From a virus (lineage: Duplodnaviria > Caudoviricetes): a DNA stretch of 64,000 bases. Position 1 is the first letter of the stretch. Each line of letters begins with the position of its first letter. The DNA lies in the IMG/VR virus record IMGVR_UViG_3300042386_001493, positions 1 to 64,000 of that record; one strand, given 5' to 3'. Under the pieces are notes generated by a model. The model searched no databases, had not been told where the DNA came from, and saw nothing but the letters and a program-made list of their open reading frames with translations. Below are positions 22,501 to 54,074 of the stretch, piece after piece. Both the position numbers and the translations under genes were made by a program.

Positions 22501-24196
22501 CAAGTAAGCCAAAAGTCATTAATAGCACTGGTCCAATAACTCCAACAAGGGTTGATGCTACAACAATAAACTTCTTAGTGCCCTCACCAAGATTATCAAA
22601 CTTGTCTAATAGCCTACCAACTACTTGAACAATTGGTGTAACTGCTTCTAAAAATGTTTTTCCTATCGGCGCTATAGCAACCTTAAGTTTTTCTATTGAC
22701 TCTTTAAAATTAGTTCCAACAGCATCTTCTAAAACACCTAATTCTCGTTCAGATAATATTGCAAGTTCTTCAATTGAAGCCCCCGCAAGATTTAAAACCC
22801 TAGCAGCCTGAGTTCCTTCTTTTGTTACGTTTTGAAATAAAGTTGATAGTCTTGAAAATTGAAACTTACCAAATAGTTGTTCAATAGCACGAGCACGGTT
22901 TAGAGGATCAAGAGTATCTAATGCCTTAGAAAAATCAATTACTGTGTTTCTTATGTTTCCTTTATTAGTTTCAACAATTGCATTAATGTTTACCCCAAGT
23001 TTTCCAAGAAATGCTGCTGCCTTGTCTGATGGATTAATTAAAGAGGCAAGACCTGATTTAAGGGCGTTAGCACCTTCTGATGCATTAATACCACCTTCTT
23101 TCATTGCTGTTAAGAAAAATGCTAGATCTTCAACAGATCCACCAAGTTGTTTTACTACTGGTCCTGCTTTAGGAATTGCTTCTGTTAAATCTTCAATAGA
23201 TACTACAGTTTGGTTTTCAACTGCGTTAAGAAAATTAATTTTACTTGCTAAATCTTCTGCTGCTACACCAAAAGCATTTGTTACTGATATTGTTGTTTCT
23301 AATGCTTGTGCTTGCTCTACTCCGCCAAGAACTGCAAGGCGAGTTGCTTGTGCTACTTGGGCTGTAAGTTCTGCCCCTGTTTTACCCATTGCTGCGGCAT
23401 TAGCAGCCATTTCCATAGTTTCTGTAACTGCAACACCATATTTTGTAAATTCTTTGGCAAGTTGTTCTACATCAGCCAAAGCCTTATTGGTCTGGTCAGT
23501 TGTTGTAAACATATCTCCATAAACACGTTTAAACCTAATGGCTTGTTTTTCAAGATCCATAAATGTTTTAGCAGCGGCGGTACCAAAATAAGCAAGGGGA
23601 ATTGTAAAGCCAACCATAAGTTGACGTCCTGCCCACTGTGTATTCTTACCAAAATTTAAAAGGTTAGTAGATCCCTGTTTTAATAGTTGATTTAACAATG
23701 CTTGTTTTTGTGCTGCTACTGCTAATTTTGTAGAGTAGTCTTTCATGTTTAAAGTGTTTGGAGTTATTGAAATTGCTTTCATTGCTCCAGAAGCATCACG
23801 ACCCATCTTGATATACTGGGTCTGCATCTTCTTAACACGCTCTTCGGCCACCTTGCCAATTGTGTTAAATTCTTGTTTAAATAATCTGCCAAATGTTTTT
23901 GTAGATCCGCCTGCATAACGGAAATACTCACGCATAGAGAGTTTATTTGTCTCCAGTGCGTGAGTAAATGATTCTGTTGAGGTTCTTACTAACCCCATTT
24001 GTGCACGGAATTTACCCGTTGCATTTATTGAATTTAAAAGATTGGTCTGCAAGCCTTTTTGAGCGGCTGCTGCGGCAGCGCTACTTTTTGCTACAGATGA
24101 ATGGAAGGTTGCTAATTGACGTTGGAGATTTTTAAGTTCTGCCAGTGCCGCCGACGTATCAATATGTACGCCAATATTAGCATTTACATCAGCCAT
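16526..24196 (-). CDS. Tape measure protein (TP901-type core) with internal hydrophilic insert
   Basis: 2556 aa, Ala/Leu-rich helical; core motifs (EGGINASEGANALKSGLASL); hydrophobic segments; follows tail tube and chaperones. Confidence 0.93.
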   Translation of the reverse strand: MADVNANIGVHIDTSAALAELKNLQRQLATFHSSVAKSSAAAAAAQKGLQTNLLNSINATGKFRAQMGLVRTSTESFTHALETNKLSMREYFRYAGGSTKTFGRLFKQEFNTIGKVAEERVKKMQTQYIKMGRDASGAMKAISITPNTLNMKDYSTKLAVAAQKQALLNQLLKQGSTNLLNFGKNTQWAGRQLMVGFTIPLAYFGTAAAKTFMDLEKQAIRFKRVYGDMFTTTDQTNKALADVEQLAKEFTKYGVAVTETMEMAANAAAMGKTGAELTAQVAQATRLAVLGGVEQAQALETTISVTNAFGVAAEDLASKINFLNAVENQTVVSIEDLTEAIPKAGPVVKQLGGSVEDLAFFLTAMKEGGINASEGANALKSGLASLINPSDKAAAFLGKLGVNINAIVETNKGNIRNTVIDFSKALDTLDPLNRARAIEQLFGKFQFSRLSTLFQNVTKEGTQAARVLNLAGASIEELAILSERELGVLEDAVGTNFKESIEKLKVAIAPIGKTFLEAVTPIVQVVGRLLDKFDNLGEGTKKFIVVASTLVGVIGPVLLMTFGLLANGVANIIKLFITMRSGFLRAGTNTNLLAQQTSYLNSEQLEAATVAASLNQAHTRLTQSFAVETTAVRLLRQAYIDATVAATRFAMANPGMMMPGGRFTPKKFARGSTYVPGTGNKDNVPAVLMPGEAVIPTDVAQDPRFQPIIDAMVNGKLQAFDDGTTGAGRFRSLPAGTNLDEAINRIREKTAGTGGGANMVAGVRAGQQAQYNREDSSVLQALSGKTSGTPNQTLQKEIELKYGRNLGVDTEAQQAYKKNREGFQELLSRITYDEKSGKYIYSDKKGIIQSTFTKEQLDRQIKYAFKEAPSQYGTMSTRKTIPETLNRYIGRLGKAGSGAPREVRELRQKYNQKTAGLGLDRENLALTKELRKQGLTTNEINKFMGKKSESHIFKPLDPKTKWQSGLTISDHEGIGQYLNRAGKKSVGKLINDPRILKELGYTDRDISKLKQSYAFAQQEKQPTNAKQLGHLARIADLEVKAHNSGKVNISKIYQAKGILGVSAVRTPQIWKEISRSIIKLGDKPSFVNKKTYAVMQNKEGILNNKGFTQFSSQNTEPRSSRTPTKNPSLDNRVTNLNPAQVASVRKFGKFGPTPKVAGLSDAPKIDARTSPGMAISAIEKQFRSEQKSLRRQIEKVEQRRLVALKQELKTIEDKNKLATQAAPLTKQQLKEQKREVRAQRAQRVGSVAGPVAGIAGIGAMAGFMTGNNSVGMAMMGVSALASIAPMLTNPLGLFVAGLVSITAVIYKFNKDMEKARQEGINLAKAMSMTNTKLIELSKITGTVSSKESADRKRQNLISGTVDQQRKFGQNVLESEFGKSLIADIATQGKAGKTDKEIATNMANQLSTAILQGVVTTEQAKSIASALGEKLGSYEIPLMISGELVSLFGINGENLTKDPLQIALAIKKDSATNLQTAFDQAQNNRKQVSAGTAAQGIAGILLGAGAVTAGTGGLGAPIALAASIALLTKSAFDLNKVQQANAKLDAASIQLGLEAIVQNQQLVDALNQQYDLKLKNAKTEKEIKDIEDQRKIGLDSLNNANQQTINDVIKLSGQISTENFDKAIGTSIDNLYKNASDAIKVFKDIAKDELNDLANTDFKKVIQIGFASGELSPNAVIALLDASKQVPEIQAKINTVVGKEGFAGASTLLELITQTGTNAKTIDLMLNYINTNEVAFDKDMTALDILAKFQQKYGVQLDLTTNGVKQLTVANDALSKISILPDKIDKTVVQKLAGENPTLFADALTNFDKLSEGKPLINKTLLVNYLVGKVDPQIRAAALAEFKGMSEQDAIAAYLAKGFNAAIEKGTNKGATPGSGERDTTLDELLKRLKLVRDASVNARGGIDELRRVMNSSGGDIKIFKGINQQLRAQGINQELIDFISDLDPAIQKKFITIKNGIVKITADGKKLAKALNEATLGEFEDNARSQTQVLRAQSATFTNLKAAGLSAAEALEIVTNEQIALAFASGKTKEEIDRMIATLRELKRNQTRTQDIINPAERIKKEVSMAMEYFDVIEREARNIYQPQIDAANKLIDANEKLIDIQQRLMEENYDRPIALLNAQSTILNHDLSLIDKAAESINKKYDAQEKALQQISDITDDIAAKESSRITIADALTRGDLSAAAKAIQQQRAEEARKAKERNSNLLQVAREKEIGKLTNTNGLTRVQIEEKLYTISEKVYALDQDSLKVSAEILRLQDANYNINKLSILPLQAKLQAELDAIEAQRAKWEAVALGVDGARVRGVEYQAVLRGHEDTLKRMKALWDGITSKELGAASLLTFANPAAETDAEKVARITKENNDSLAESRAQLADLTNIMKDLQKTPISKPPTNTNTAYNQGLSGGLYGPTPVMPTIVPKPASTASASGPRGGGYTIIPPTKTSYNPLSSFSAAATPTVSYRARAMGGIIPKYYVSGGYSRGTDTIPAMLTPGEFVVRRNAVDSFGVNNLNKINDGSYGGSSVYNYSLNVNVKSDSSPDDIAKTVMTQIRRIDNQRIKGQK

Positions 24197-39670: not shown

Positions 39671-40327
39671 ATGAATAATGTTTGGATAGTAGTTCCAGTT
39701 ATTTCTAACGATATTGATTTAACATCATATGTTGATAGACTATCTGGCGGCTATACCGCCCCAGAAACATATGAAAAAACTGTTTTTAACCCTGAAACAC
39801 AAGCAAGTGAAAAAGAAGATGTGGCTCATCCATATGCTGGTCAAGTGTCACATGATTTTTCAAATAAAATTATTTTTGTAAACAAAGTAGACGGGTACGG
39901 CGAGTATGAAGGCGTAGTTCATTTGGAAGATTTTAATGATATAGGCATATATCGTTATTGGAATACTGGACTAGAGTATGCTTTTGCAAATGGGGCAGAC
40001 TCAGTAATCTTAACAAATGGTGTTTTTGAATTTGATCCATTTGTAATTAAAGAAGCATATGATGAATTTTCTAAGGGTGAATCAGAGGTTATAAATATCT
40101 CTGATGGGGCTATGTTGTTAGTTTCATCATCTTCTAGCCTACGTGCTGATGAGCAATTTCAAATATGGTTTGGTGATAATGATTTTTATCGTAGAGCAGA
40201 GCCTGTATTAGGATATTCTCGTTCAGAATATTTATGGGGAGATTATTTAATTGATTCTAGTTCTACCGAATCTTTTGATAGCATTGTTGCTTCTGATCAA
40301 GTAAAATATAATGCTAAGTGGAACTAA
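39671..40327 (+). CDS. GT2-like glycosyltransferase homologue, possibly degenerate
   Basis: WIVVPV, WNTGLEYA, LRADEQFQIWFGDNDF; expected NDD/DxD reads TNG; GGAGG RBS before ATG 39671. Confidence 0.55.
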   Translation: MNNVWIVVPVISNDIDLTSYVDRLSGGYTAPETYEKTVFNPETQASEKEDVAHPYAGQVSHDFSNKIIFVNKVDGYGEYEGVVHLEDFNDIGIYRYWNTGLEYAFANGADSVILTNGVFEFDPFVIKEAYDEFSKGESEVINISDGAMLLVSSSSSLRADEQFQIWFGDNDFYRRAEPVLGYSRSEYLWGDYLIDSSSTESFDSIVASDQVKYNAKWN

Positions 40328-41288
40328 TTTTTTCAAACAATCTATTCCACTCTTTAGACCTTAAATCCCAAGAGTAATTTTCATTATAAAAATCTGATTG
40401 TTTTTGTAATTTACTTTGTGTTTCTATAGACCAATAATTGTCAATCTCTTCATTTAGTGTTTTTGCATATGCTGGAATAAATGTTTCTGGTACCGCTTGC
40501 ATTGGCATAAGCCTTGCATATTCTGATCCAGTTTCATATAATGCACCAAGATTAGTTGTAACCATACGACATCCCGCAGCACCAGCCTCAACCATAGCCA
40601 AACAACATGTTTCTTCAAACGTACTTGGGTATGCAAATATATGAGATTCTTGTAAGGCTTTTTTAATTACATCATTTGTAGCGTATCCCATATAATTAAC
40701 GTTTTTCATATTACGGGCTATTTCAAAATGTTCTTCGTATACCCCGTTTGTATGAGCCTCATATCCAGTTCCATACATCTTTGCTGATGAATAAATATCA
40801 AGTTCAACATCATCTCTATTTAGCATTTCAAATGCTGGCAAAAGCATGTCTAATCCACGAAATGGGGCAGAAGTATAAATTAACTTTATCTTGCCATCTT
40901 TTGTCTTAGGTTTAAACTCTATTGGGTCAATAGCATTTTTAATTACATATGCATTTTCAAGAGGGATTTTAAATATCCAGCGATACTTTTCATGTTGCCA
41001 GTGAGAAATATATACAAATGAATTTATGGCATTCATAAATAAGGGATCTGTATATCCTGATCTTAACGATTCATCACTATGAGCCAAATGCTGCCATAGC
41101 AAATTCTTTTTTGTATATTTTACATTTTTAAAATATGGATTAGATAGCAAAAGGTTAATATCTTTATGCTGTGCTATATTAGTATATTTATATAGTCCAG
41201 ATTTTAATATTTCTGTACCGCCCATTGGGGGCAAAGATTCTTCTACCACCCCAATATCGTTTTGTGGAACCTGCTGCAACCAATCCAT
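40314..41288 (-). CDS. Glycosyltransferase family 4 (GT-B)
   Basis: MGGTE, YTSAPFRGL, YPSTFEETCCLAMVEAGAAGC, TNLGAL; start MDWLQ with AGGAG RBS. Confidence 0.88.
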   Translation of the reverse strand: MDWLQQVPQNDIGVVEESLPPMGGTEILKSGLYKYTNIAQHKDINLLLSNPYFKNVKYTKKNLLWQHLAHSDESLRSGYTDPLFMNAINSFVYISHWQHEKYRWIFKIPLENAYVIKNAIDPIEFKPKTKDGKIKLIYTSAPFRGLDMLLPAFEMLNRDDVELDIYSSAKMYGTGYEAHTNGVYEEHFEIARNMKNVNYMGYATNDVIKKALQESHIFAYPSTFEETCCLAMVEAGAAGCRMVTTNLGALYETGSEYARLMPMQAVPETFIPAYAKTLNEEIDNYWSIETQSKLQKQSDFYNENYSWDLRSKEWNRLFEKISST

Positions 41289-41296
41289 GCTATCTC

Positions 41297-42019
41297 CTAA
41301 TTGTAAGTTTTTTTCTGCCAAAACTGTTGTTTATATGAACGAACTATTTTTGATTTTAATAAGAAACCATTTTTACGATTTTCTTCTTCATCAAATTCTA
41401 CAACATCGCTTTTCCAGTCTTCTCTCTTAAATGGAATAACCTGACAGATAGGAGTTCCCTTTTCAAGAATAAAAACATTTTTGTCAATTATGGAATCCAA
41501 TAGTTGAAATGGAAACTCAACACCAAGTTTATACATATCAGTATCCACAACACCAGAAAATGTTCTAAATGGAAGATCGTGCCTGTTTGTTGGGTGCGTA
41601 AACAGACAACTATAGCCTTTTGGAGTAATAACTCTCCATCCTGGTCTCCACTTAAGAAGACTTGAAGAGCCACCAAATGGTCCTGGTAATCCTGGTGCTT
41701 GATCTGGTCCGTGTTGTCCTATAAGATTAATATTTGTTGCCCAACGAACATTAATCATTCCTTTATCATTTTTTCTAAACTCCATATCAAATGGTAATTC
41801 AAACATGTAGCCTGTACTTAAAGCGTCAAGAAAAGGAGAGCATCCCTTTAATGTTAAGTTACTAACTGCAACCCCATCTTTTGATAAACCGTCTAATTTT
41901 TCTTCATCCATTCTTGTTGGCATATCTTTATACCATTGTGGAAGAGACTGAACTGCTGGCTTTGGACTTTCAAACAAAAGTTCTGTTTCTTTATCAAATG
42001 CTTCAAATTGTAATTTCAT
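41297..42019 (-). CDS. DUF6065-like protein
   Basis: PQWYK, GCSPFLDALSTGY, TPKGYSCLFTHP, GVVDTD, GTPICQVIPFKRE. Confidence 0.55.
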   Translation of the reverse strand: MKLQFEAFDKETELLFESPKPAVQSLPQWYKDMPTRMDEEKLDGLSKDGVAVSNLTLKGCSPFLDALSTGYMFELPFDMEFRKNDKGMINVRWATNINLIGQHGPDQAPGLPGPFGGSSSLLKWRPGWRVITPKGYSCLFTHPTNRHDLPFRTFSGVVDTDMYKLGVEFPFQLLDSIIDKNVFILEKGTPICQVIPFKREDWKSDVVEFDEEENRKNGFLLKSKIVRSYKQQFWQKKTYN

Positions 42020-42723
42020 TATTTATTTTCCTGTGGATAATTTTTTTGTAAAACATCCATCCAATGAAGTTTAAATGTTTTTTGATGAGTTACTCTAACT
42101 TTGGGATCCGCCCAAATTTCAAAACCAGAATTAATGGCTTTTGTGCACCAAGAAAGATCTTCACCAATAAGTATAAACTCAGGATTTGTGTCTTTGTTTT
42201 CATCTGTATTGGGTATTGCTACTGGGCCAAACCAAGGTCTTGGCATTTTTTCAAATACTCCTTGTTTAACGGCTAGGAACCCAAATCCAGCCCCAGCAAC
42301 TTTGAATGGCTCATTCTTATCAAGGAGCATTTGTTCTGGCATCATTCCGCCTCTAGGCTGATTATAAATAGGAACGTGGCGATCTTCCATTAAATAGCAT
42401 CCAGAAATAATATCTTTTTCAGAATTATATAATGCAAAAAAGTCTGATGGCTCCCACTCAATATCTGAATCAATCCAAATAATTTTGTCGTAAGTCCATT
42501 CACCACTACATGGCTCTGTCATATTTATATTATTTGTATCCCAGCCACCAATTGTACACTCACGGGCCATTGCAACTAAAGATCCACCTTGATTTAAAAA
42601 GTTCCAAGATAAGCCTTCTTCATTTAGTATGTATGTTGTTTTAAGAATACTTCTCATATATCCAGGAGTAAATCCATTTCCTGGAGTAGCGATTACTACA
42701 TTAAAATGTGGCTTATTTGCCAT
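42019..42723 (-). CDS. Glycosyltransferase (GT-A/GT2-like)
   Basis: IATPG, WIDSDI (DxD), GFGFLAVKQGVFE, GEDLSWC. Confidence 0.8.
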   Translation of the reverse strand: MANKPHFNVVIATPGNGFTPGYMRSILKTTYILNEEGLSWNFLNQGGSLVAMARECTIGGWDTNNINMTEPCSGEWTYDKIIWIDSDIEWEPSDFFALYNSEKDIISGCYLMEDRHVPIYNQPRGGMMPEQMLLDKNEPFKVAGAGFGFLAVKQGVFEKMPRPWFGPVAIPNTDENKDTNPEFILIGEDLSWCTKAINSGFEIWADPKVRVTHQKTFKLHWMDVLQKNYPQENK

Positions 42724-43384
42724 AGTTATCTAACCTTACCTTTACTTTTTTATAATGCGACAAACTTACTGTAGGATCTAAGTATATCTTAAATCCTGCT
42801 TTCTGTGCTTTTTTGCACCAAGAAAAATCTTCTCCGTAAGGAATAAAAATTTCTTTTTCCCCATCTTCTGAAGTCATTTTTTCAAATACTGACTCAAACC
42901 ATGGTCTTTTTATATTTTCAAATACGCCTTGTTTCATTGCTATAAAACCAAATCCTGCAGCAAAAATTTCTTCTTCCTTATTGCTTTTTAAAATTTTATC
43001 AATTTCTGTTGCTGCATCTTCTACTGCTACAGAAAACATTGGTACCATTTTTTCATTAAAATATAAACCAGAAACAATATCTTTATCAGATTCATATATT
43101 TTCATAAAGTCTGTTATTTCCCATCCAATATCAGAATCAATCCAAAAAATTTTATCATATGTTACTTGTCCACGAACTGGGCTATTATTAAAAGGATCGA
43201 GATATTGATCCCCCATTGCTGTTGCTTCTCTAGCGGTACTAACCATAGATGAATATTCATTTAAGAACATATATGAAATACCTACTTGATTTAGATATGA
43301 AATAGTTTGTATTAGACTTTTTACATATTCTGCTTCCATATTTCTACCAGGAGTAGCGATAAGAATATTTACATGTGGATTCAT
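42713..43384 (-). CDS. Glycosyltransferase (GT-A/GT2-like), paralogue of the downstream gene
   Basis: IATPG, WIDSDI, GFGFIAMKQGVFE, GEDFSWC; TAATG-coupled start at 43384. Confidence 0.8.
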   Translation of the reverse strand: MNPHVNILIATPGRNMEAEYVKSLIQTISYLNQVGISYMFLNEYSSMVSTAREATAMGDQYLDPFNNSPVRGQVTYDKIFWIDSDIGWEITDFMKIYESDKDIVSGLYFNEKMVPMFSVAVEDAATEIDKILKSNKEEEIFAAGFGFIAMKQGVFENIKRPWFESVFEKMTSEDGEKEIFIPYGEDFSWCKKAQKAGFKIYLDPTVSLSHYKKVKVRLDNYGK

Positions 43385-44199
43385 TAGTTTCTCCAAAATT
43401 CTTGACCAGAATATTTATTTATTACATATTCAGATAATAGTTCTTGTTTATTTATATTTCGACGGGATATAGAAGATCTTACATCATGTTGTCCTATAAG
43501 TCCATAGACATTATCATCTTCTTTAATGTTGTTTGCTATATTTGAATAATCATGGGTAAATCTTTCAATACCGTAAAAATCATAAATCTTGTTAATTTCT
43601 TCTTCTGGATTTGCTATTAAATCATCGTATTCTACAAAATGGAAATACTTTCTGTTGTCTGGATGCATTGCAAATGCTATACCATATAAGCAGTTATCAA
43701 TAATGCCTTTTGGTCTCATTAAACTATCACACCTAATATCATCTGCTGGACGGTAAAAATTAAATTCCTGTCTTGTCTGTATTTCAGAATCAATAAAATT
43801 ATTTTTATTTGGATTTTTCTTAACTAGACTTATAAATGATGCAAGGATATCTGTTATTCCTCTTATTGGTAGTATTATTTTTGGTTCATATCCAAGATTT
43901 CTTTGCAATACCCCGAAATGTTCAGGCATTGACCATTCTCTTGATTTATCAATAATGATAGGTTTATTTGTATCAGAGTAGTATCCTTCTAATACCCCCA
44001 TAATTGTATTTGGCATTACTACAGGTTTGGGATATGCAGAGTATTGTTCTGATGCCAAAATACTACGTTCTAAATTAAATATCATTCCACACATAGGTGA
44101 ATTTGCTGATGAATAAATATCAGGATTTTGATTTAATATAGATGATATTAGAGTACTACCAGATCTTGGAAGACCTGCCATAAAATAAAAATTTTTCAT
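43384..44199 (-). CDS. Sulfotransferase family protein
   Basis: PAPS-binding loop GLPRSGSTL, DKSREW, R..DILAS, YDDL..P. Confidence 0.88.
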   Translation of the reverse strand: MKNFYFMAGLPRSGSTLISSILNQNPDIYSSANSPMCGMIFNLERSILASEQYSAYPKPVVMPNTIMGVLEGYYSDTNKPIIIDKSREWSMPEHFGVLQRNLGYEPKIILPIRGITDILASFISLVKKNPNKNNFIDSEIQTRQEFNFYRPADDIRCDSLMRPKGIIDNCLYGIAFAMHPDNRKYFHFVEYDDLIANPEEEINKIYDFYGIERFTHDYSNIANNIKEDDNVYGLIGQHDVRSSISRRNINKQELLSEYVINKYSGQEFWRN

Positions 44200-44246: not shown

Positions 44247-47200
44247 TTATGCAAGTTCAATATCAGTTAAATTATAATTAGATATTGGTAATGTCAATGC
44301 TTGAGTAGTCCATGTAGCACCATCAGTTGATACATATATGCCTAGGTTTTCATTTACTGTTGAGGTATTTATGTCTCCTGATCCTGAAATTGCTGTCCAT
44401 AGGTTGTTGCCATAGGCTACTGAAAATATATCATTTACAAAGTTTAAGGTTTTGGTAGTCCAGGTTACTCCATCGGTTGAAGTTCTTAGGGCTCCAAAAT
44501 TGCCACCTGCTACCCAAATACTGTTTCCGTAGGCTATTGATCGTATAGTTCCACTTCCAAAGTTTGAAGTTTGTGTGGTCCAGGTTGTGCCATCTGTTGA
44601 GGTACGGAGTGTGCCTGAAATTCCACCTGCTATCCAGAGGTTATTTCCGTAGGCTACTGATATTATACGTGTAGTTCCAAAGTTAGAGGTGCGTGTAGTC
44701 CAGGTTATGGCATCGGTTGAGGTGCGCAATTGGCCTCCATCCCCACCTGCTATCCAAAGGCTGTTGCCGTAGGCTGCTGACCATATAGTGGTATTTCCAA
44801 AGTTAGAGGTTTGGGTAGTCCAGGTAGTGCCGTCTGTTGAGGTACGGAGTTGTCCTGTATAGCCAGTTGCTACCCAAAGGCTGTTGCCGTAGGCTACTCT
44901 TTGTATTTGTGTATTTCCAAAGTTAGAGGTGCGTGTGGTCCAGGTTGTTCCATCCGTTGAGGTACGTAACTGGCCTGTATTTCCACCTGCTATCCAAAGA
45001 TTGTTTCCGTAGTCTACTGAGTTTATCTGTGTATTACCAAAGTTAGAGGTGCGTGTGGTCCAGGTTGTTCCGTTTGTTGATGTACGGACTTGTCCTGAAC
45101 CACCACCTGCTACCCACAGGTTATTGCCGTAGGCTACTGATGTTATAAAAGTATTGCCAAAGTTGGAGGTTTGTGTTACCCATCTATTTGGTGTTTTTCC
45201 ATCTACATATATTGAATAAGTGTTATTATAAGAATTTACTTTTTCTACCCAACCCAAAACTCCTGTTCTAGTTGAGGCATATGTAGAATTTGATGTATTA
45301 AATGTATAAAATATTCCTTGATCTGATGCTAATATATCTGTGTTTATTGATGTAATAATTGGTGATATTGATGGGGTGTAGGAAATTCGTAGTTGTCCTG
45401 CCTCACCACCTATTGCCCATAGGTTGTTGCCGTAGGCTACTGAGTTTATAACGGTACTTCCAAAGTTAGAGGTTTGGGTAGTCCAGGTTATGGCATCTAT
45501 TGAGGTACGTAACTGGCCTGCATCTCCAACTATTGCCCAAAGGTTGTTAGCGTAGGCTACTGAGTTTATAGTTGTAGCACCAAAGTTAGAGGTGCGGGTG
45601 GTCCAAGTTATTGCATCAGTTGAGGTGCGGAGATTGCCTGCCTCACCACCTGCTACCCAGAGGTTGTTGCCGTAGATTATTTTGTTTATAAGTGAAGCAC
45701 CAAAGTTTGAGGTTTGGGTGGTCCACGTTATAGCGTCTGTTGAGGTGCGGAGTTGTCCTGAATATCCACCTGCTATCCAAAGGCTATTACTATAGACTGC
45801 TGTGCGTATACCTGAAGTTCCAAAGTTTGAGGTTTGGGTGGTCCATGTTATTGTATCTGTTGAGGTACGGAGTTGTCCTGAACCACCAACTGCTACCCAG
45901 AGGTTATTTCCGTAGGCTATTTCGTTTATAAGTGAAGCACCAAAGTTTGAGGTTCTGGTAGTCCATGTTATTGCATCTGTTGAGGTGCGTAGTTGGCCAT
46001 TAGCCCCTCCTATTACCCAAAGGTTGTTGTTATGGGCTAATGCAAATATACTGTCAACAGCAGAAAAGTTAGAGGTTTGGGTAGTCCATGTTATTGCATC
46101 TGTTGAGGTGCGTAGTGTGCTAAAGATTCCACTTGCTACCCACAGGTTATTGCCGTAGGCTATGTCTCTTATAGCAAGGTTTCCAGAAATATTTGAAGTT
46201 TGAGTAGTCCATTGCAAATTTTGAATGGTATATGAAATTAAATTATTACTAGTAACAAAATTATTATCTGCTATTAATCCAAATGCTGTATTTCCAAATG
46301 CAGATATTGACTTTATATTGTTGAATAATGGTGTTACGGTTGAGGTGCGGACTTGGCCTGCACTACCGCCTGCTACCCAAAGGCTGTTGCCGTAGGCTAC
46401 TGATTGTATACGTGTATTTCCAAAGTTAGAGGTTTGGGTATCCCAGGTTGTGCCATCTGTTGAGGTACGGAGTGTGCCTGTGTAGCCAACTGCTATCCAT
46501 AGGCTGTTGGCGTAGGCTATTGACTCTATGCGTGTAGTTCCAAAGTTGGAGGTGCGTGTGGCCCAGGTTATGGCATCTGTTGAGGTACGAATTCGGCCAT
46601 ATACTCCACCTGCTACCCAAAGGTTGTTGCCATAGGCTACTGAGAATATAGTTGTTCCAAAGTTGGAGGTGCGGGTGGCCCAGGTTATGGCATCTGTTGA
46701 GGTACGTATTTGGCTTCCAGTACCACCTGCTACCCACAGGTTATTGCCGTAGGCTATTGCATATATATTTGAGGTTCCAAAGTTGGAGGTTTGGGTGGTC
46801 CAAGTTGTGCCATCGGTTGAGGTGCGGATTTGTCCTGTATAGCCGCCTGCTACCCAAAGGCTGTTGCCGTAGGCTATTGATTGTATCTCTGTATTACCAA
46901 AGTTAGAGGTGCGGGTGGTCCAGGTTATGGCATCTGTTGAGGTGCGGAGTTGTCCTGTATTACCACCTGCTATCCATAGGCTGTTGGCGTAGGCTACTGA
47001 TTGTATAAAAGAGGTTCCAAAGTTTGAGGTACGAGTGGTCCAGGTTATGGCATCTGTTGAGGTACGGAGTGTGCCTGAACTACCACCTACTACCCACAGG
47101 TTATTGCCGTAGGCTACTGATGTTATAAAAAAGTTTCCAAAGTTAGAGGTGCGGGTGGTCCAAAAAATTCCTGCCTGATACAAACTTCTATATTGATTAT

Positions 47201-49412
47201 ATTGATCTGTATTTCTATCAGAATATAAAAGAGATCCATTTATATTTGATATTGCTTTATAGCGTTCTGTTGTTGCTATGCCGCTTGATTTTACGTTGGT
47301 ATCTACAGAAGCAATAGCATTTAAAATACTAATAGTAGTCCATGATATTCTATCAGTAGACACTCTTGTATTTGTTCCTGTTGAAGATGCTACTGTTGAT
47401 ATATTTGGATTATATAATAAGATTGAGGTACGGAGTTGGCCTGACTCTCCACCTGCTACCCAAAGGCCGTTTCCATAGGCTACTGATGTTATACTTGAAG
47501 TTCCAAAGTTGGAGGTTTGCGTAGTCCAAGTTATTGCATCTGTTGAGGTGCGGAGTTGGCCTGTATTTCCACCTGCTATCCAAAGATTGTTTCCGTAGTC
47601 TACTGAGTTTATCTGTGTATTACCAAAGTTAGAGGTGCGTGTGGTCCAGGTCGTACCATCCGTTGAGGTACGTAACTGGCCTGTATCCCCACCTATTGTC
47701 CATAGGTTGTTGCCATAGGATATTGCTCTTATGGCTGTACTTCCAAAGTTTGAGGTACGGGTAGTCCAGGTTATGGCATCTGTTGAGGTACGAAGTGTTC
47801 CTGTATAGCCGCCTGCTATCCAAAGATTGTTTCCGTAGTTTAACCTTAGTATATCCGTATTACCAAAGTTTGAAGTTTGGGTAGTCCAGGTGGTGCCGTC
47901 TGTTGATGTTCGTAGTTGTCCTCTATTTCCACCTGCTACCCAGAGGCTGTTTCCATAGGCTATTGAGTGTATAAAAGAGGTTCCAAAGTTGGAGGTACGA
48001 GTGGTCCAGGTTGTGCCATCTGTTGAGGTGCGTAGTGTTCCTGCATTACCACCTGCTATCCAAAGGTTATTGCCGTAGGCTATTGAGTATATACGTGTAC
48101 TTCCAAAGTTGGAGGTGCGGGTATCCCAGGTTGTGCCATCTGTTGAAATTTGTATTTGTCCAGTATCTCCACCTGCTATCCATAGGCTGTTGCCGTAGGC
48201 TACTGAGCGTATTGTTGTGCTTCCAAAGTTAGAGGTTTGTGTATTCCAACTAGATATTGCATTATTATTTTCAGCAATTTGCACATTATTTATATTACTT
48301 GATCCAAATCCAGCATCTATTGTTGTCCATGATATGGAGTCGGTAGAAAATAAGAGTCTATTATTGTTCCCGCCGACAATATAATTATTTAAAGTAGGAT
48401 TATATGAAATATCGTTTAAAGAATCATCTGCTGAAGTGCGGATTTGTCCTTGATTTCCACCTGCTACCCAGAGGCTGTTGCCATAGGCTACTGAGTATAT
48501 ATCTGAAGTTCCAAAGTTAGAGGTTTGGGTGGTCCAGGTTATGGTATCTGTTGAGGTGCGCAATTGGCCATATTGCCCACCTGCTACCCAAAGACTGTTG
48601 CCGTAGGCTACTGAGAATATACTTGTATTACCAAGGTTTGAGGTTCTGGTAGTCCAGGTTGTGCCATCTGTTGATGTGCGTAGTTGTCCTGAATTTCCAC
48701 CTGCTATCCAAAGGTTATTGCCGTAGGCTATTGAGCCTATAGATGTACCACCAAAGTTGGAGGTTTGGGTAGTCCAGGTTATGGCATCTGTTGAGGTGCG
48801 TAAGGTGCCTGTATTTCCACCTGCTATCCAAAGACTGTTGCCGTAGGCTATTGAGCGTATTGCTGAAGTTCCAAAGTTTGAGGTTTGAGTGGTCCAAGTT
48901 GTGCCATCTGTTGAGGTGCGCAATTGGCCATATTGCCCACCTGCTACCCAAAGGCTGTTGCCGTAGGCTACTGAAAATATATTTGTATTACCAAAGTTTG
49001 AGGTTTGAGTGGTCCAAGTTGTGCCATCTGTTGAGGTGCGCAATTGGCCTGTATAGCCGCCTGCTATCCATAGGCTGTTGCCGTAGGCTACTAATCGTAT
49101 ATCCGTATTTCCAAAGTTGGAGGTACGAGTGGTCCAGGTTATGGTATCGGTTGAGGTGCGAAGTGTGCCAGATTGCCCACCTGCTACCCAAAGGTTATTT
49201 CCATAGGCTACTGCTCTTATCTGTGTGTTTCCAAAGTTTGAGGTTTGTGTGGTCCAGAATGTGCCATTATTTGACGGTATATTAATATCAAAAGTTGTTA
49301 AATCTCCAGTAGATGATCTTAATGTTCCATCAGTTCCAGTAATAAAAAGTTTTTTTAAAAAGTTGAATGTTGATACAAATACAGCGCTAGCAGTAATTCC
49401 TAAGATTGGCAT
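44247..49412 (-). CDS. Multi beta-propeller (BNR/Asp-box-like) putative receptor-binding protein
   Basis: 35 copies of a ~40-aa repeat with S-T-D-G-x-T-W Asp-box; start MPILGITAS at 49412 overlaps the upstream TAA. Confidence 0.85.
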   Translation of the reverse strand: MPILGITASAVFVSTFNFLKKLFITGTDGTLRSSTGDLTTFDINIPSNNGTFWTTQTSNFGNTQIRAVAYGNNLWVAGGQSGTLRTSTDTITWTTRTSNFGNTDIRLVAYGNSLWIAGGYTGQLRTSTDGTTWTTQTSNFGNTNIFSVAYGNSLWVAGGQYGQLRTSTDGTTWTTQTSNFGTSAIRSIAYGNSLWIAGGNTGTLRTSTDAITWTTQTSNFGGTSIGSIAYGNNLWIAGGNSGQLRTSTDGTTWTTRTSNLGNTSIFSVAYGNSLWVAGGQYGQLRTSTDTITWTTQTSNFGTSDIYSVAYGNSLWVAGGNQGQIRTSADDSLNDISYNPTLNNYIVGGNNNRLLFSTDSISWTTIDAGFGSSNINNVQIAENNNAISSWNTQTSNFGSTTIRSVAYGNSLWIAGGDTGQIQISTDGTTWDTRTSNFGSTRIYSIAYGNNLWIAGGNAGTLRTSTDGTTWTTRTSNFGTSFIHSIAYGNSLWVAGGNRGQLRTSTDGTTWTTQTSNFGNTDILRLNYGNNLWIAGGYTGTLRTSTDAITWTTRTSNFGSTAIRAISYGNNLWTIGGDTGQLRTSTDGTTWTTRTSNFGNTQINSVDYGNNLWIAGGNTGQLRTSTDAITWTTQTSNFGTSSITSVAYGNGLWVAGGESGQLRTSILLYNPNISTVASSTGTNTRVSTDRISWTTISILNAIASVDTNVKSSGIATTERYKAISNINGSLLYSDRNTDQYNQYRSLYQAGIFWTTRTSNFGNFFITSVAYGNNLWVVGGSSGTLRTSTDAITWTTRTSNFGTSFIQSVAYANSLWIAGGNTGQLRTSTDAITWTTRTSNFGNTEIQSIAYGNSLWVAGGYTGQIRTSTDGTTWTTQTSNFGTSNIYAIAYGNNLWVAGGTGSQIRTSTDAITWATRTSNFGTTIFSVAYGNNLWVAGGVYGRIRTSTDAITWATRTSNFGTTRIESIAYANSLWIAVGYTGTLRTSTDGTTWDTQTSNFGNTRIQSVAYGNSLWVAGGSAGQVRTSTVTPLFNNIKSISAFGNTAFGLIADNNFVTSNNLISYTIQNLQWTTQTSNISGNLAIRDIAYGNNLWVASGIFSTLRTSTDAITWTTQTSNFSAVDSIFALAHNNNLWVIGGANGQLRTSTDAITWTTRTSNFGASLINEIAYGNNLWVAVGGSGQLRTSTDTITWTTQTSNFGTSGIRTAVYSNSLWIAGGYSGQLRTSTDAITWTTQTSNFGASLINKIIYGNNLWVAGGEAGNLRTSTDAITWTTRTSNFGATTINSVAYANNLWAIVGDAGQLRTSIDAITWTTQTSNFGSTVINSVAYGNNLWAIGGEAGQLRISYTPSISPIITSINTDILASDQGIFYTFNTSNSTYASTRTGVLGWVEKVNSYNNTYSIYVDGKTPNRWVTQTSNFGNTFITSVAYGNNLWVAGGGSGQVRTSTNGTTWTTRTSNFGNTQINSVDYGNNLWIAGGNTGQLRTSTDGTTWTTRTSNFGNTQIQRVAYGNSLWVATGYTGQLRTSTDGTTWTTQTSNFGNTTIWSAAYGNSLWIAGGDGGQLRTSTDAITWTTRTSNFGTTRIISVAYGNNLWIAGGISGTLRTSTDGTTWTTQTSNFGSGTIRSIAYGNSIWVAGGNFGALRTSTDGVTWTTKTLNFVNDIFSVAYGNNLWTAISGSGDINTSTVNENLGIYVSTDGATWTTQALTLPISNYNLTDIELA
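44355..49256 (-). repeat. Coding ~120-nt tandem repeats in five blocks of seven
   Basis: Blocks begin at about 49256, 48248, 47162, 46211 and 45182; consensus WTT(Q/R)TSNFGxxxIxS(V/I)AYGNxLW(V/I)AGGxxGxLRTSTDxxT. Confidence 0.95.
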
Positions 49413-51664
49413 TATGCGCTTAAATCCCCTACAGCCACCCAAGTATTTGCTGCTCTTTTAACAATTGTGGCGACAGACCATTGTCCTCTTAGTTTTAAAC
49501 CAGGACTTCCATTTACTGTTGTAGTTGCTGGAGTTACCGCTGCAATTGTTATTTGTCCTGCTCCAGTTTGTAAAATATTTATTTGTGATCCTATTGCAAA
49601 ATTTGCAGTAGCATCTGTTGGTATATTTAGTGTACCCGCAGTTGCTCCATTACTTAACTCAAGCCATTTATCTTTATCTGCTAGAACTACTGTGTATGCA
49701 TTTGTTGTAAATGTAGGTGTTGAAATAGTTAAAGTAGAAGAAGCAAACTCAACTGCTTGTGACACCGAATTAAGAGTGCCCCCAACAAGAATTTTGTCAT
49801 TAGTAGAATCCCAAGCAATTCTGCCATCTGTTGTAGAAGATGTAGTAGATAGAGTAAGGAGTGGTGTATCAATTGTTGGACTTGTTAAAGTTTTATTTGT
49901 AAGGGTTTCAGATACATCTTTAAGAGCAGTTCCATTCATAGAGTATGACTTACCAGAAGCAAGATTTATGTGTTCCGATGAAGTCCAAGAATCTGTAGAG
50001 TCAACCCAGTTAAAGGTTTTATCGGTTGTGCCTTTAAGTGTAATACCTCCGCCATCGGCAGTTATGTCTGTTGGAGTTTCTACATCTCCAAGAATAATAT
50101 TTTTATCTTCAACAACTAGGTTAGTTGAGTTAATATTTGTAGTTGTACCGTTTACGGTAAAGTTTCCAGATACCGTCAAAGAAGGAACTGTAAATTCTCC
50201 AGATGAAGATACATTAGCAAGGATTGTTCCGCTTGAGTTTTGCCATTCTTGCAGGTTAGCGGTTTGTGATGCTATGCCTCTAATAACTTGTCCAATATTT
50301 GTTGTAGCAGTTGTGGTAACTTCCATTTGTGCGCCGTAGTTAGTAGTACCACCAGTACGCATTTTTCCAGTTGATGTTACAAAAGATACACCTGTAATAA
50401 AATCTGAAACAAATGCGCCATCTGATTGAATTCTTGCCAATAGTGTACCAGCACTATCCTGCCATTGTTGAAGGTTGGCGGTTTGGGAGGTTGCACCACG
50501 AACAACTATCGGAGTAATTGCTGCCGTACCAGCAACAAAACTTCCAACGGCAGACAAAGTAAATGTTCCACCTGTACCTGCTACATCTGTAAATCCTGAA
50601 CCAAGAACCGTAAAGGTTGTTGATGTAACTGCTGTGACTGTCCAAGTTCCATTGTAAGTGCCACCACTTACTGATGCCACTGTAACTCGCTGACCTGCTT
50701 GCACAAGTGATGTGCCACCATAGGTAAAGACTGCAACTGTCGCAGATGTATATGCAGCCGATGTGATTGCCGTAGTAGTTGAACCATTGATGCTTGTGGT
50801 AGTCCCTGCGTATATTTGTCCAGCAGAATTAATTCCTGAAAGAACAGTTCCAGCACTACCCCTCCATTGTTGTAGGTCTGAAGTTTGAGTTGAAATACCT
50901 ATTACTTGTAAAGATGGATAACTTCCTGCTGTTGATGTGACAGCAAAATAGGCAGAATTATTTCCTGATTGAAATACTAGTTGGCTTCCTCCGCCACCTA
51001 CATATCCCATTGAACCTGAAATACGTAAATTACCACTTGCCTGGATTGATGCCAACGTTGTACCAGCATTATTCTGCCATTGTTGAAGGTCGTTTGATTG
51101 TGACGTTGCGCCTCTCACAACTATTCCAGTAGTAGTATTATTTATAGGAATTACTGATAATTGTGTTCCTGTTATTAAGGTTCCAAGATTTAGTGCGCCA
51201 GTATTTCTTAGGCTTGCCCTTACCGTTCCATCAAAATTGTGCCATTCTTGCAGGTTAGCGGTTTGAGATTCGGTGCCCTTTACAATTAAACCAATAGTTT
51301 CAGCATTAGCAGTAGTAATCTGTTGCACTCCACCAGTAAAAGTATTGGCGGTAGCAAGATAAGGAACACCAGTAATTGCTGAACCTGCTGGAATTGTTAC
51401 TGTGCCAGTAAAAGTGGGGGAAGCAAGTGGGGCTTTAGCATCTATCTGAGTTTGAATTGCTGAAGTTACACCATCTACATAATTTAATTCTGTAGAAGTT
51501 GCTGTAAGATCAACGTTCTCGTTAATTTTTGGGGTAGTTAAAGTTTTATTTGTAAGAGTTTGTGTATCCGATGTGGTAATAACTTGATTACCATTGACCG
51601 TAGCAGAGTTTCCTTCTACGATCAAACCATTCTTGACCCTAAAATCTTTATTTGTTGTAGTCAC
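49412..51664 (-). CDS. Tail fibre/adaptor protein
   Basis: GTG start; N-terminal KDFRVKNGL; TLTNKTLT fibre repeats; five SQTxxLQ(E/Q)W-type repeats; C-terminal ...WVAVGDLSA domain. Confidence 0.8.
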   Translation of the reverse strand: MTTTNKDFRVKNGLIVEGNSATVNGNQVITTSDTQTLTNKTLTTPKINENVDLTATSTELNYVDGVTSAIQTQIDAKAPLASPTFTGTVTIPAGSAITGVPYLATANTFTGGVQQITTANAETIGLIVKGTESQTANLQEWHNFDGTVRASLRNTGALNLGTLITGTQLSVIPINNTTTGIVVRGATSQSNDLQQWQNNAGTTLASIQASGNLRISGSMGYVGGGGSQLVFQSGNNSAYFAVTSTAGSYPSLQVIGISTQTSDLQQWRGSAGTVLSGINSAGQIYAGTTTSINGSTTTAITSAAYTSATVAVFTYGGTSLVQAGQRVTVASVSGGTYNGTWTVTAVTSTTFTVLGSGFTDVAGTGGTFTLSAVGSFVAGTAAITPIVVRGATSQTANLQQWQDSAGTLLARIQSDGAFVSDFITGVSFVTSTGKMRTGGTTNYGAQMEVTTTATTNIGQVIRGIASQTANLQEWQNSSGTILANVSSSGEFTVPSLTVSGNFTVNGTTTNINSTNLVVEDKNIILGDVETPTDITADGGGITLKGTTDKTFNWVDSTDSWTSSEHINLASGKSYSMNGTALKDVSETLTNKTLTSPTIDTPLLTLSTTSSTTDGRIAWDSTNDKILVGGTLNSVSQAVEFASSTLTISTPTFTTNAYTVVLADKDKWLELSNGATAGTLNIPTDATANFAIGSQINILQTGAGQITIAAVTPATTTVNGSPGLKLRGQWSVATIVKRAANTWVAVGDLSA

Positions 51665-51692
51665 TGAAGTTCCCTATCCCCTCAGATACATA

Positions 51693-54074
51693 TTAGGCTT
51701 CTATAAGCGTCTTATGCACCTTTACTGTTGTCTCGTCTGATGCCGTTACAAGTAGTCTAACATTTCCGCCTGAGTAATCTGCATTAGTTGTTCCTAAAGA
51801 TGCTGCTGCATTGATTACATCTGCGTATTCTGTAAGAGCAACGTTGTTGCCTCCGTCTACGTTAACAAGGATTTCTATGGTTTGAATTTCTGTACCCTTT
51901 TTCATTTGTACTAAATATTTAGCACTTGAGTATGTGGTTGCTGACCAAGAGTCAACTACGGTTGCAGTTCCACTTGTAAGTGCTTGTGTAGCAGTTCCAA
52001 TTAATGCATCTGTCAGTGTAAGCGATGTTGCAGTTGCTGCACCAATGTTTGGAGTTGTAAGTGTTGGAGAGGTGCCAAATACTAGAGCGCCAGACCCTGT
52101 TTCGTCAGAGATTACTGATGCTAGTTCTGTTGAAGTGGTTGCTGCAAAAACGTCCAATTTGTTGTTTGTAAGAGCAACAGTACCTGTAGCATCTGGAAGA
52201 GTAATTGTTCTGTCTGCAGTTGGATCAGTTACTGTAATAGTTGTTTCATGGTCGTTTGCTGTAGCACCTTCAAGAACGATACTTCCGTCTGAAAGGGTAA
52301 GTCCTGAAATTGTTGGTGATGTTAGAGTTTTGTTTGTTAAAGTGTCCGTTGAAGAGGTAGTGACAACATTAACACCTTCAACAGCAATAACACCTGCTGA
52401 AACTCTTGAAATTGTTGTGTCTGTAGCATGGCCTAACTCAACAGTTCCTACACCTAAAGCGGTGGAAGTTGAAGCAACTAATCCACTAATCGGTAAGCCA
52501 GTTGCATTTGTTAAAGTTCCTGATGCTGGAGTTCCAAGTGCTGGAGTAGTTAGTGTTGGCGATGTGAGAGTTTTATTTGTAAGGGTTTGTGTATCTGTTA
52601 ATGTTACTACAGTTGAATCAATATCAAGAGTGTTTCCAGTCTTGTCTAATCCTGTACCCGCAACAATTTGTCCAAGACCAGTAAACTGAGTAAAGGTAAG
52701 TGCTGTAGTTCCAACTGTAATTGCACCATCGTTAGTTAATACATAACCTTGATCAGCGTTTACAGTTCCTTCTTCTACGAATACCGCAAAATTTGAAGTA
52801 AGTTCAGCACCTTCATCACAATCTTGTGCACGATCTGGATTACCAAATGGTCGAACTATATAAATACCGTTTTCTGAAGCAGTTGATTGATTCTTAACAA
52901 GAATACGCTCATTAACAACAAGAGTTACTCCGTCAATAACATCTCCATTGTTAAGATCACTGAAAAGGTTAACGTTTGCAGTTGTTGCTGCACGTACTGA
53001 TGGTTTCCAGTCAATACCTACAACTGCTGTATCAACATAACCTTTTGTTGCTGCATCTGATGAATCAGTTGGTGTACCAAGACCTGTAATCTTGTAAGTT
53101 GCCATACTGACGTTGCCAGTTGGTGCTCCAACAGCGCTTAGTGCAAACTCTGAAGGGTCTACAGAAATTGCGCCTGTTGAATCATCATAGTCAAGACCAT
53201 TTCCTACAACAGTTCCAATTGCATCTTGTGCTCTTTCGTCTGTGAAGTATTTGTTTGTTGAACCTTCTGCAATATCGTCAGATCCAAGAGTACGTGAACC
53301 ACCAAGAGATGTTGATGTACCGTTAATAGTAATTGCTGAGTTTGATAGTTTATCGTTTGCAATTGATCCTGCAAGCATTGTGTTTGTTACAGAACCTGTA
53401 TCTCCAGTTGTTACAACAGTTCCAGTTACGTCTGGAAGAGTAATTGTACGGTCTGCTGTAGGGTTTGTTACTGTAAGAGTTGTCTCGTTAGCATCTGCTG
53501 ATGAACCTTCAAAAACAATGCTTGAATCTGAAAGTGCAAGTCCTGAAACCACTGGGCTTGTAAGAGTCTTATTTGTAAGTGTTTCAGTTCCTGCAAGAGT
53601 TGCAAAGTCTTGATCTGTTAGTGCTGTATTAAACTCTGCAATAGTTCCTGTAATTGTGTTTGTAGTTAGTGAAACCGATTTGTTTGTAAGTGTATCAGTT
53701 GTGTCTTTAAGAACTACCGTTCCAGTTGCATTTGGAAGTGTAATTGTTCTATCTTCAGTTGGATCGGTTACTTGAAGGGTAGTTTCAAAGTCATTTGCAG
53801 TTGCACCTTCAAATGAAACGCTTGCTTGAAATACTCCAACTGGTTGTGTTTCTTTCCAGGCAATTCCATTTGTTGCTTGATCGTCTGCTGTAAGCACATA
53901 GTTATTTGTTCCAACTGCTAGACGAGTTACTGCATCTGCACCAGATGCAACTAGTAAATCACCTTTTGCGTCTACTAATGCTTCTGTTAATATATCGTGG
54001 TTGTTTACAGTTGCAGTTGATCCTTCAACTACTAGTCCCGCTTTTACTCTAAAATCTTTTGTTACGGTTGCCAT
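51693..54074 (-). CDS. Tail fibre protein
   Basis: [10 protein letters not shown]-terminus; AKGDLL motif; three (F/L)EG..A..ETT..PTxDRTITLP repeats; DAATKGYVD; [13 protein letters not shown]. Confidence 0.85.

Follow-up and report, generated by a model that had tools for sequence, protein, structure and literature searches.

What holds together a phage protein in which 35 near-identical repeats are spread over five separate blocks? The question is raised by a gene in the stretch of 64,000 nucleotides analysed here (positions 1 to 64,000 of the IMG/VR virus record IMGVR_UViG_3300042386_001493; Duplodnaviria, Caudoviricetes), from here on called the window. The gene occupies 44247..49412 of the minus strand (stop codon 44247-44249) and encodes a multi-propeller protein of 1721 amino acids. 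A first-pass annotation, made from the sequence alone, had read the repeats as five seven-bladed propellers and the six segments around them as pieces of a sixth, discontinuous propeller, whose loops had each received a recently amplified propeller. Relatives of the gene show that the five inserts are discrete cassettes, present, absent, doubled or exchanged on a constant scaffold; that the scaffold itself closes into one seven-bladed hub is plausible and, in our estimate, moderately probable.

The open reading frame (ORF) spans 44247..49442 on the minus strand, and its longest frame begins at a TTG. The true start is most likely the ATG at 49412-49410 (residue 11 of the ORF translation), because this ATG overlaps the stop codon of the upstream gene of 750 amino acids as TAATG and has a GGGGA about 12 nucleotides upstream; the length of 1721 amino acids assumes this start, which agrees with the gene end at 49412 chosen earlier. 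Residue numbers for pieces of the window protein refer to the ORF translation from the TTG at 49442 and not from the ATG.

Seven-bladed blocks and the scaffold between them

The anchor pattern W.T.T[SL]N matches the ORF 35 times at a spacing of 39-41 amino acids, in five runs of seven that begin at amino acids 63, 399, 761, 1078 and 1421, and Tandem Repeats Finder reports arrays with a period of 120 nucleotides over the same stretches (71-80% matches). Two other contigs, L002 and L003, carry the same 5 x 7 layout, which is thus no accident of assembly; the five blocks of exactly seven repeats had been recognised correctly from the start. In a consensus of the 40-amino acid blade, made from the 32 of 35 blades with exact 40-residue spacing, W1, T3, T5, N7, N20 and G27 are invariant or nearly so. 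The blades contain the motif S35-x-D37-x-x-x-W1 (S35 in 31/32, D37 in 26/27 and W1 in 32/32), a short 's-Asp-box' with one residue less than the classical Asp-box of 8 residues.

The consensus of the s-Asp-box is S/t-x-D/n-x-x-x-W/f/y (Quistgaard and Thirup, PMC2716378). According to that survey, the Asp-box occupies the loop that joins strand 3 of a blade to strand 4, nearly all Asp-box propellers close by a 1+3 'velcro', and no n-bladed structure has n motifs. In each block of the window protein, the fourth-strand segment, which comes after the motif, stands first; six whole motifs follow, and the block stops behind the third strand of its seventh blade, so that the seventh S-x-D-x-x-x-W motif is split between the two ends of the block. 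Read from sequence, this is the signature of a closed seven-bladed propeller with 1+3 closure, the N- and C-termini of which would be neighbouring strands of one blade. With its ends side by side, such a propeller could sit in a loop of another domain. An AlphaFold2 model of the related protein P0127 has four strands per canonical blade, at a predicted local distance difference test score (pLDDT) of about 65-93, with the motif between strands 3 and 4 when the register is set by eye.

Scaffold pieces (S0 to S5) and inserts (P1 to P5) alternate along the minus strand, and the blade numbers given here are those of the proposed scaffold. S0 (49257..49412, amino acids 11-62) has an N-terminal motif, MPILGI.., which is a helix in the model of a relative, followed by three strands of blade 1. 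Insert P1 (48429..49256, seven canonical blades of 40 amino acids) leads to S1 (48249..48428, amino acids 339-398), with blade 2 and the first strand of blade 3, and P2 (47421..48248, seven canonical blades) leads to the 86 amino acids of S2 (47163..47420, amino acids 675-760), with the rest of blade 3 and blade 4; S2 is 87-99% identical in L002, L004 and L007. P3 (46338..47162, seven canonical blades) is followed by S3 (46212..46337, amino acids 1036-1077), a single blade-like unit of 42 amino acids (blade 5). After P4 (45378..46211, seven blades), the most diverged of the five blocks, S4 (45183..45377, amino acids 1356-1420; 65 amino acids) holds blade 6 together with strands 1 and 2 of blade 7. 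P5 (44355..45182, seven canonical blades) is followed by S5 (44250..44354, amino acids 1697-1731; 35 amino acids), with the last two strands of blade 7 and a conserved C-terminal strand that is proposed to close blade 1. The blade-like character of all six pieces, an observation of the first-pass annotation, holds: S1 alone matches canonical blades by BLASTP (29-44% identity, E down to 1e-8), and for S0 and S2 to S5 the evidence consists of motifs recognised by eye and of similarity to relatives.

Put together, the pieces would form a conserved scaffold of about 315-340 amino acids made of seven degenerate propeller blades: a helix at the N-terminus would be followed by three strands, then by five and a half blades, and at the C-terminus by the strand that closes the ring. 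Five loops of the scaffold would be interrupted, each by a self-contained seven-bladed propeller of near-identical s-Asp-box blades, the last blade of which contributes its outermost strand to the beginning of the insert and its other three strands to the end.

Evidence for such an arrangement comes from relatives in which insertion sites are empty. A scan of viral contigs with the propeller gene gave eight loci, and scaffold searches, with the uninterrupted S0-S1 stretch of L007 and, in a second round, the P0127 N-terminal scaffold as natural queries, delineate a family with a conserved N-terminal motif and C-terminal strand; 10 of the 265 collected proteins match one or the other motif. L007 lacks exactly amino acids 57-337 (281 amino acids, equal to block 1; window 48432-49274), and its S0 runs straight into S1, with flanks that are 97.0% (S0, over 135 nucleotides) and 97.5% (S1, over 162 nucleotides) identical to the window. 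The complete protein P0127 (854 amino acids) has inserts at sites 3 and 5 only: a contiguous S0-S1-S2 (1-175) is followed by seven blades (176-445), S3-S4 (446-549), another seven blades (550-820) and S5 (821-854), and phmmer maps S1, S3, S4 and S5 of the window onto it in this order (E 1e-14, 7e-7, 5e-8 and 7e-4). In P0130, which is truncated at the C-terminus, insert 1 is followed by adjacent S1 (353-394) and S2 (399-482), then by an S3-like stretch (by eye) and blades. P0006 (1476 amino acids) lacks only insert 4: it consists of S0, inserts 1-3, contiguous S3-S4, insert 5 and S5, and S3-S4 of P0127 maps to its residues 1059-1155 (E 3e-17). S0-S1 is also contiguous in P0007 and P0049 (partly by eye), and S4-S5 in P0266 and P0268 (by eye). 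Every one of the five sites is thus filled in some members and empty in others, and no complete member has lost a scaffold piece. A doubled insert is found in L004, which keeps S2, S3, S4 and S5 (75-94% amino acid identity) and has 14 blades, two propellers back to back with no spacer, at site 3 between S2 and S3. The homologues with fewer inserts that the first-pass annotation had suggested looking for therefore exist (L007, P0127, P0130 and P0006), with flanking spacers contiguous at the empty sites. As is expected of a nested architecture, the host segments are contiguous in these four and in P0122, and the guest is exactly seven blades; the case for inserts within a scaffold is strong.

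These relatives also bear on the possibility that the spacers are extra, degenerate blades of the adjacent blocks, so that the protein as a whole would string together five propellers, each of eight to nine blades. The clear homology of S1 to canonical blades would fit such a chain, as would the spacer lengths of 35-86 amino acids, about one to two blades. Every block, however, has its own closure signature (leading fourth strand, six motifs, end after strand 3), and the natural indel is exactly 281 amino acids, seven blades, and leaves both spacers intact. Two blocks stand back to back without a spacer in L004, and spacers persist without the adjacent propeller in P0127 and P0130. Because spacers persist where neighbouring propellers are absent, we regard extra blades as very improbable, an outcome in line with the first-pass annotation, which had set them against its own proposal.

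One small relative stands apart. In P0122 (301 amino acids, complete), an S0-S1 that shares about 90% identity with L007 leads to only four canonical blades, of which two are nearly the same, and then to S5. The protein may be a genuine mini-version with a single propeller (27 strands by count) or the product of a short-read repeat collapse, and because of the second possibility it is not used as evidence. A relative consisting only of the hub, with zero inserts (about 320 amino acids), was absent among the best 150 of 474 matches in a representative search; a scan of viral contigs with P0127 gave no relative, and a megablast of the gene against named phages gave no match. Proteins of about 830-856 amino acids were considered as further scaffold relatives (35 proteins of 780-900 amino acids were inspected) and rejected, as they mostly belong to another phage family without this scaffold. 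P0125, P0132, P0134 and about 25 others of this length have N- and C-termini that are conserved but differ from those of the scaffold family, and match a blade-like query in the middle; they may be another host for propeller inserts, and are perhaps phage tail proteins.

Possible closure of the scaffold into one hub

Counted in blade register, the scaffold of P0127 has 15 strands in residues 1-175, 10 in 446-549 and 3 in 821-854, which adds up to 28, the number of strands in seven four-stranded blades. AlphaFold2, run on P0127 with an alignment of 13 rows (A4), gave a mean pLDDT of 68.6 and a predicted template modelling score (pTM) of 0.42; two other alignments, A1 (MAFFT, scattered fragments) and A2 (16 full-length rows, S3-S4 misaligned), were not used, A3 and A4 being better. 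Both inserts are modelled at block-mean pLDDT values of about 65-93. Residues 18-122 of the scaffold are modelled as 3+4+4 strands (18-22, 26-31, 35-40; 47-53, 58-63, 68-71, 78-80; and 89-95, 98-103, 108-111, 118-120) with block-mean pLDDT values of 56-84, matching the register set by eye. For this modelled part, spacers that are merely disordered linkers, the outcome that would have spoken against the original proposal, can be dismissed. Insertion sites 1 and 2 fall between modelled strands of P0127.

With the register backed by the model, site 1 lies between the last strand of blade 1 and the first strand of blade 2, and site 2 in the turn between strands 1 and 2 of blade 3. By eye, site 3 is placed between blades 4 and 5, site 4 between blades 5 and 6, and site 5 in the turn between strands 2 and 3 of blade 7. 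By this reading of the sequence all five insertion sites are loops.

The two halves of the P0127 scaffold, residues 1-175 and 446-854, were docked with ESMFold2. The score was 0.49 (runs 0.49, 0.51 and 0.48), and the highest of the 3 control scores was 0.00; at least 68% of contacts are shared between runs, and the partner has a pLDDT of at least 75. In the calibration, 51 of 78 solved complexes and 2 of 108 mismatched pairs attained the mark; scores of up to 0.60 included only 5 of the 78 solved complexes and all 4 mismatches that passed (of 180). The docking is weak support for an association of the scaffold halves.

A natural break in the scaffold is found in L005 (5920-11236), a relative with 49% identity, in which the gene is split into two ORFs, the first stopping (TAA) 1 nucleotide before the ATG of the second. 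P0266, P0268, P0222 and the second ORF of L005 (ORF-B) all start with a methionine at the same scaffold point, which is, in the by-eye register, the turn between strands 2 and 3 (B-to-C) of scaffold blade 3. With such a break inside a blade, the blade, and with it the hub, would have to be completed in trans.

Several points weigh against a closed hub. At least 13 of the 28 scaffold strands were placed by eye, and S0 and S2 of the window were not detected in P0127 by phmmer at E<=1e-3 but matched by eye. Without an alignment, AlphaFold2 models P0127 at a mean pLDDT of 30 and a pTM of 0.23; the A4 alignment is shallow and partly misaligned in the scaffold (the ORF-B rows are one blade off at the start of S2), and with it residues 123-172, 446-550 and most of 819-838, about 190 scaffold residues, have pLDDT values below 50 at a pTM of 0.42. 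A docking score of 0.49 will, by the calibration, mislead more often than not where the guess was not already likely. From the general geometry of the propeller fold, four of the sites share one face and site 2, in the A-to-B turn by register, lies on the opposite one, which makes a flower-like arrangement less tidy. The original proposal of one propeller with inserts is thus borne out by the relatives as far as a conserved unit with inserted propellers is concerned, while a single closed hub is a plausible extension.

Low model confidence (pTM 0.42, and pLDDT below 50 for most of S2b, S3-S4 and S5) and the weak docking result are also what one would expect of beads on a string, that is, of independent propellers with spacers that are separately folded beta linkers or partial blades, kept for spacing or attachment and never forming one domain. 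The distant relative P0003, in which the same propeller is separated by unrelated non-blade domains of about 85 amino acids, points the same way, as do the best Foldseek matches in the PDB, ordinary tandem-propeller proteins (2ymu, BT4673, LRP4 and LRP2). Against independent beads, all scaffold pieces are kept, in order, whatever the inserts, and form contiguous blade arrays where inserts are missing. The contiguous N-terminal array is modelled as three regular blades, the strand total fits exactly seven blades, with a C-terminal strand that would complement the N-terminal three-strand unit, and the split-gene relatives break the chain inside a scaffold blade. On balance we consider beads on a string rather unlikely.

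Several propellers of six to seven blades in one chain are also found in DDB1-type triple propellers, in the YWTD tandems of LRP4 and LRP2 and in the 14-bladed 2ymu, and the Foldseek matches in the PDB include 2ymu_A, 8s9p_B and 3ei2_A. These PDB matches are generic multi-propeller matches with template modelling (TM) scores of 0.17-0.28 (query-normalised) and are uninformative on the hub. DDB1 propellers are built from non-contiguous chain segments. We know of no protein of the DDB1, LRP or 2ymu type with five like propellers in the loops of a sixth, or with a varying number of inserts. A survey of domain insertions of the type A1-B-A2 (PMC13114784) describes hosts that are cut by a complete guest and one host with multiple insertions; the word 'propeller' is absent from its main text. 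The protein described here differs from these cases in that host and guests have the same fold and the occupancy of five sites varies combinatorially.

Composition, divergence and exchange of the inserts

The spacers are more AT-rich than the repeats, as already noted in the first-pass annotation: the GC fraction is 0.24-0.33 in spacers and 0.45-0.50 in repeats, and the GC fraction at third codon positions (GC3) is 0.09-0.21 and 0.37-0.46, respectively. The 36 other ORFs of the window have a mean GC3 of 0.208 (sd 0.041, range 0.13-0.29). The same contrast between blade and non-blade codons is found in L004 (0.417 and 0.102), L007 (0.430 and 0.169), L008 (0.415 and 0.101) and both ORFs of L005 (0.568 and 0.246; 0.551 and 0.203). 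Blade GC3 (0.37-0.57) is thus about twice that of scaffold and other genes, in relatives down to 49% identity, and because it recurs in relatives the excess is a lasting property and not the sign of one recent transfer. Biased gene conversion among the repeats and repeated import are both possibilities.

Blades of the same block are 0.750 identical at the nucleotide level (105 pairs), blades at the same position of different blocks 0.746 (70 pairs) and all other pairs 0.744 (420 pairs). This absence of structure by block or position leaves no trace of whole-propeller duplication. Individual pairs are nearly identical: blade 6 of block 2 and blade 2 of block 5 (0.95), and blades 3 and 6 of block 1 (0.93). 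At four-fold degenerate sites of identical residues, identity among blades is 0.605 (4678/7732), while base frequencies predict 0.349, which would correspond to a divergence of roughly 0.6 synonymous substitutions per site. The star-like pattern fits scattered gene conversion among all blades, and not a very recent burst. The 'recent amplification' of the first-pass annotation is therefore only partly upheld: blades are about 75% identical in nucleotides and well above chance at four-fold sites, but the pattern argues against a very recent burst and has no block or position signal.

Exchange of a whole insert is seen in the comparison with L002 and L003. All segments of the window gene are 97-100% identical to these contigs in nucleotide sequence except P3 (82.9% in nucleotides, 78.9% in amino acids). 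In P3, 104 of 275 codons differ (46 synonymous and 58 nonsynonymous changes), against 8 to 24 of about 276 codons in each of the other four inserts and 6 of 340 codons in the six scaffold pieces together. The many synonymous changes and the sharp borders at S2 and S3 indicate that P3 is a putative diverged allele imported by recombination, and not the product of local hypermutation. A target of a diversity-generating retroelement was considered and rejected: RVT_1 has no match in the viral record that contains the window (86 kb, estimated 81% complete), and synonymous changes make up 46 of the codon differences.

The amino acid differences of P3 are concentrated at blade positions 10-12, 14-16, 28 and 29 (25 of 48 residues, against 22 of 188 elsewhere), and blade entropy peaks at positions 12, 14, 28 and 29 (3.5, 3.3, 2.9 and 2.5 bits). 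In blade register, the variable positions lie in the loop before strand 1 and in the turn between strands 2 and 3. In a propeller, these two share the face opposite the Asp-box hairpins.

The propeller also occurs outside the scaffold family. In L006 and P0011, a canonical seven-blade block sits inside non-blade host domains; the two halves of the host domain flank the propeller (L006, 2-3485, and P0011), and the L006 family gene is split into two ORFs. In P0009, the propeller is found near the C-terminus of a protein with an Mtd_N tail-fibre N-terminal domain. A stand-alone copy of 290 amino acids is encoded by the Actinomycetia phage DSL-LC01 (OQ999401.1; L010, 5998-6870) among collagen-like fibre genes, where it is annotated as 'photosynthesis system II assembly factor'. 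Many relatives carry the name 'photosystem II assembly factor' from their source annotations; the label looks like a misnomer, because the window protein has no match to PF14870.

Family, genomic setting and function

In Pfam, the window protein (P0001) matches DUF6242 (PF19755) with 69.1 bits (cut-off 29, E 6.5e-19); the cut-off is also passed by P0006 and P0072, and by P0011 just above it (29.8 bits). Only DUF6242, Kelch_6 and PBSX_XtrA were found in the Pfam scan of P0001, with no match to BNR (PF02012) or PSII_BNR Ycf48 (PF14870), and a sequence search of the PDB returned only the designed propellers Ika8 and Tako8 (E about 1e-6). Phage proteins of the DUF6242, BNR or photosystem II assembly factor-like type are similar in structure: the single-propeller viral models M1PQ47 and A0A6J5SXG5 superpose on an insert with TM scores of 0.76-0.82 (target-normalised). 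These proteins, however, have single or simple tandem propellers, and none was seen with an interrupted scaffold. Further Foldseek matches among viral models are a tail fibre protein of Caulobacter phage Percy, DUF6242 and BNR-repeat phage proteins, and cyanophage baseplate proteins.

With the Asp-box propellers of GH33 sialidases, GH74, Vps10/sortilin and GH32/GH43, as described in PMC2716378, the inserts share the S-x-D-x-x-x-W hairpin before the last strand, the sequence pattern of 1+3 closure, the n-1 motifs and, in the model, four-stranded blades. They differ in that the short motif occurs in six of seven blades, whereas the survey has it in only 1-2 blades of the 5-bladed GH32/GH43 structures. 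Further differences are the near-identical blades, the missing Pfam BNR match and the combination of five propellers and a blade-like scaffold in one chain.

As Asp-box propellers are mostly glycosidases (PMC2716378), the inserts could be glycoside hydrolase domains (sialidase, GH74 or endosialidase-like depolymerase) and not binding modules; the ancestral GH74 enzyme 6p2k_A is found among the Foldseek PDB matches, at rank 36. The near-identical consensus blades, however, have no blade-specific catalytic residues, Pfam reports no glycoside hydrolase family, and the sequence matches in the PDB are confined to designed symmetric propellers. An enzymatic role is therefore improbable.

The petals would be lectin-like instead, a view based on the most variable positions lying in two loops that are placed on the same face. 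With as many as 35 such sites, a host surface glycan would be bound with high avidity, and a cassette swap between conserved scaffold arms would change specificity. The protein would then work like the seven-bladed PLL lectins of Photorhabdus, other repeat lectins and the umbrella-toxin lectins of Streptomyces (PMC6943638, PMC11186620 and 10.1101/2025.04.24.650519), with near-identical blades that provide many equivalent sugar sites and avidity, and with several diversified lectin domains on one particle; the likeness is one of proposed working principle and not of sequence membership.

The source of the window is a tailed phage, as is evident from its portal, tape measure, tail and head genes: besides the propeller gene, the window encodes a DNA polymerase, a tape measure protein of 2556 amino acids, a minor tail protein, a portal, a protease, a major head protein and a ribonucleotide reductase. 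The tape measure gene (16526-24196, minus strand) implies an unusually long tail. Directly upstream of the propeller gene are two genes for proteins of 750 and 793 amino acids (49412..54074, minus strand), which match PHROG families of virion structural, tail fibre and head decoration proteins and are kept upstream of the propeller gene in L002, L003 and L007. The 750-amino acid protein (49412-51664, minus strand) has internal repeats, with self-like tblastn matches of 28-39% identity within L002 and L003, and a segment of about 90-180 amino acids in common with a 'head decoration protein' of Synechococcus phage S-CBS2 and with minor tail proteins of Gordonia phages. Downstream (40314..44199, minus strand) lie genes for a sulfotransferase, two paralogous glycosyltransferase-like proteins, a DUF6065-like protein and a group-1 glycosyltransferase. 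These sugar-modifying genes keep their position by the propeller gene in L002, L003, L004 and L008 (94-100% amino acid identity) and in L005 (55-74%), and occur in L006 too. Possible substrates of the enzymes are the propeller protein itself, which is very rich in Thr and Ser, and a sugar of the host surface.

A location on the virion surface is suggested by the PHROG matches of the neighbouring genes, the proteins headed by Mtd_N and the match to the Caulobacter phage tail fibre, and an adhesin role is a reasonable inference. The gene adjoins the head module, the ribonucleotide reductase and the sugar-modifying genes, and not the tape measure gene; its product may equally well serve as a fibre or decoration protein of the capsid as in a tail fibre. 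The analysis as a whole makes a multivalent glycan-binding virion protein with exchangeable cassettes likely. The full explanation, a nested scaffold with propellers that serves as a virion-surface protein of the receptor-binding type, built as a seven-bladed hub with five propeller petals, is the one we favour, with modest confidence. A wider version of it has about an even chance in our view: a propeller 'flower' whose hub carries 0-6 exchangeable lectin cassettes, swapped, lost, doubled or imported via homology arms in the scaffold, with the GC-rich cassette mobile among unrelated phage tail and fibre proteins and the hub sometimes split in trans. In such a flower, the cassettes would be attached by the rim without the seventh Asp-box hairpin and the variable faces would point outward.

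Asp-box-type binding propellers of phages and nested domain architectures are both known; of a propeller scaffold with several like inserts, a search of full-text literature, covering main texts, found no description. The GC3 excess of the blades in AT-rich genomes presents a puzzle about repeat evolution in phages. If the hub is real, the protein would be an extreme case of natural nesting, in which a single host domain takes up five guests that have its own fold, and the relatives with 2, 4, 5 and 6 inserts offer a natural series for the limits of loop insertion and propeller folding. For the phages themselves, host recognition could vary by the exchange of whole-domain cassettes, instead of by point mutation or exchange of fibre tips.

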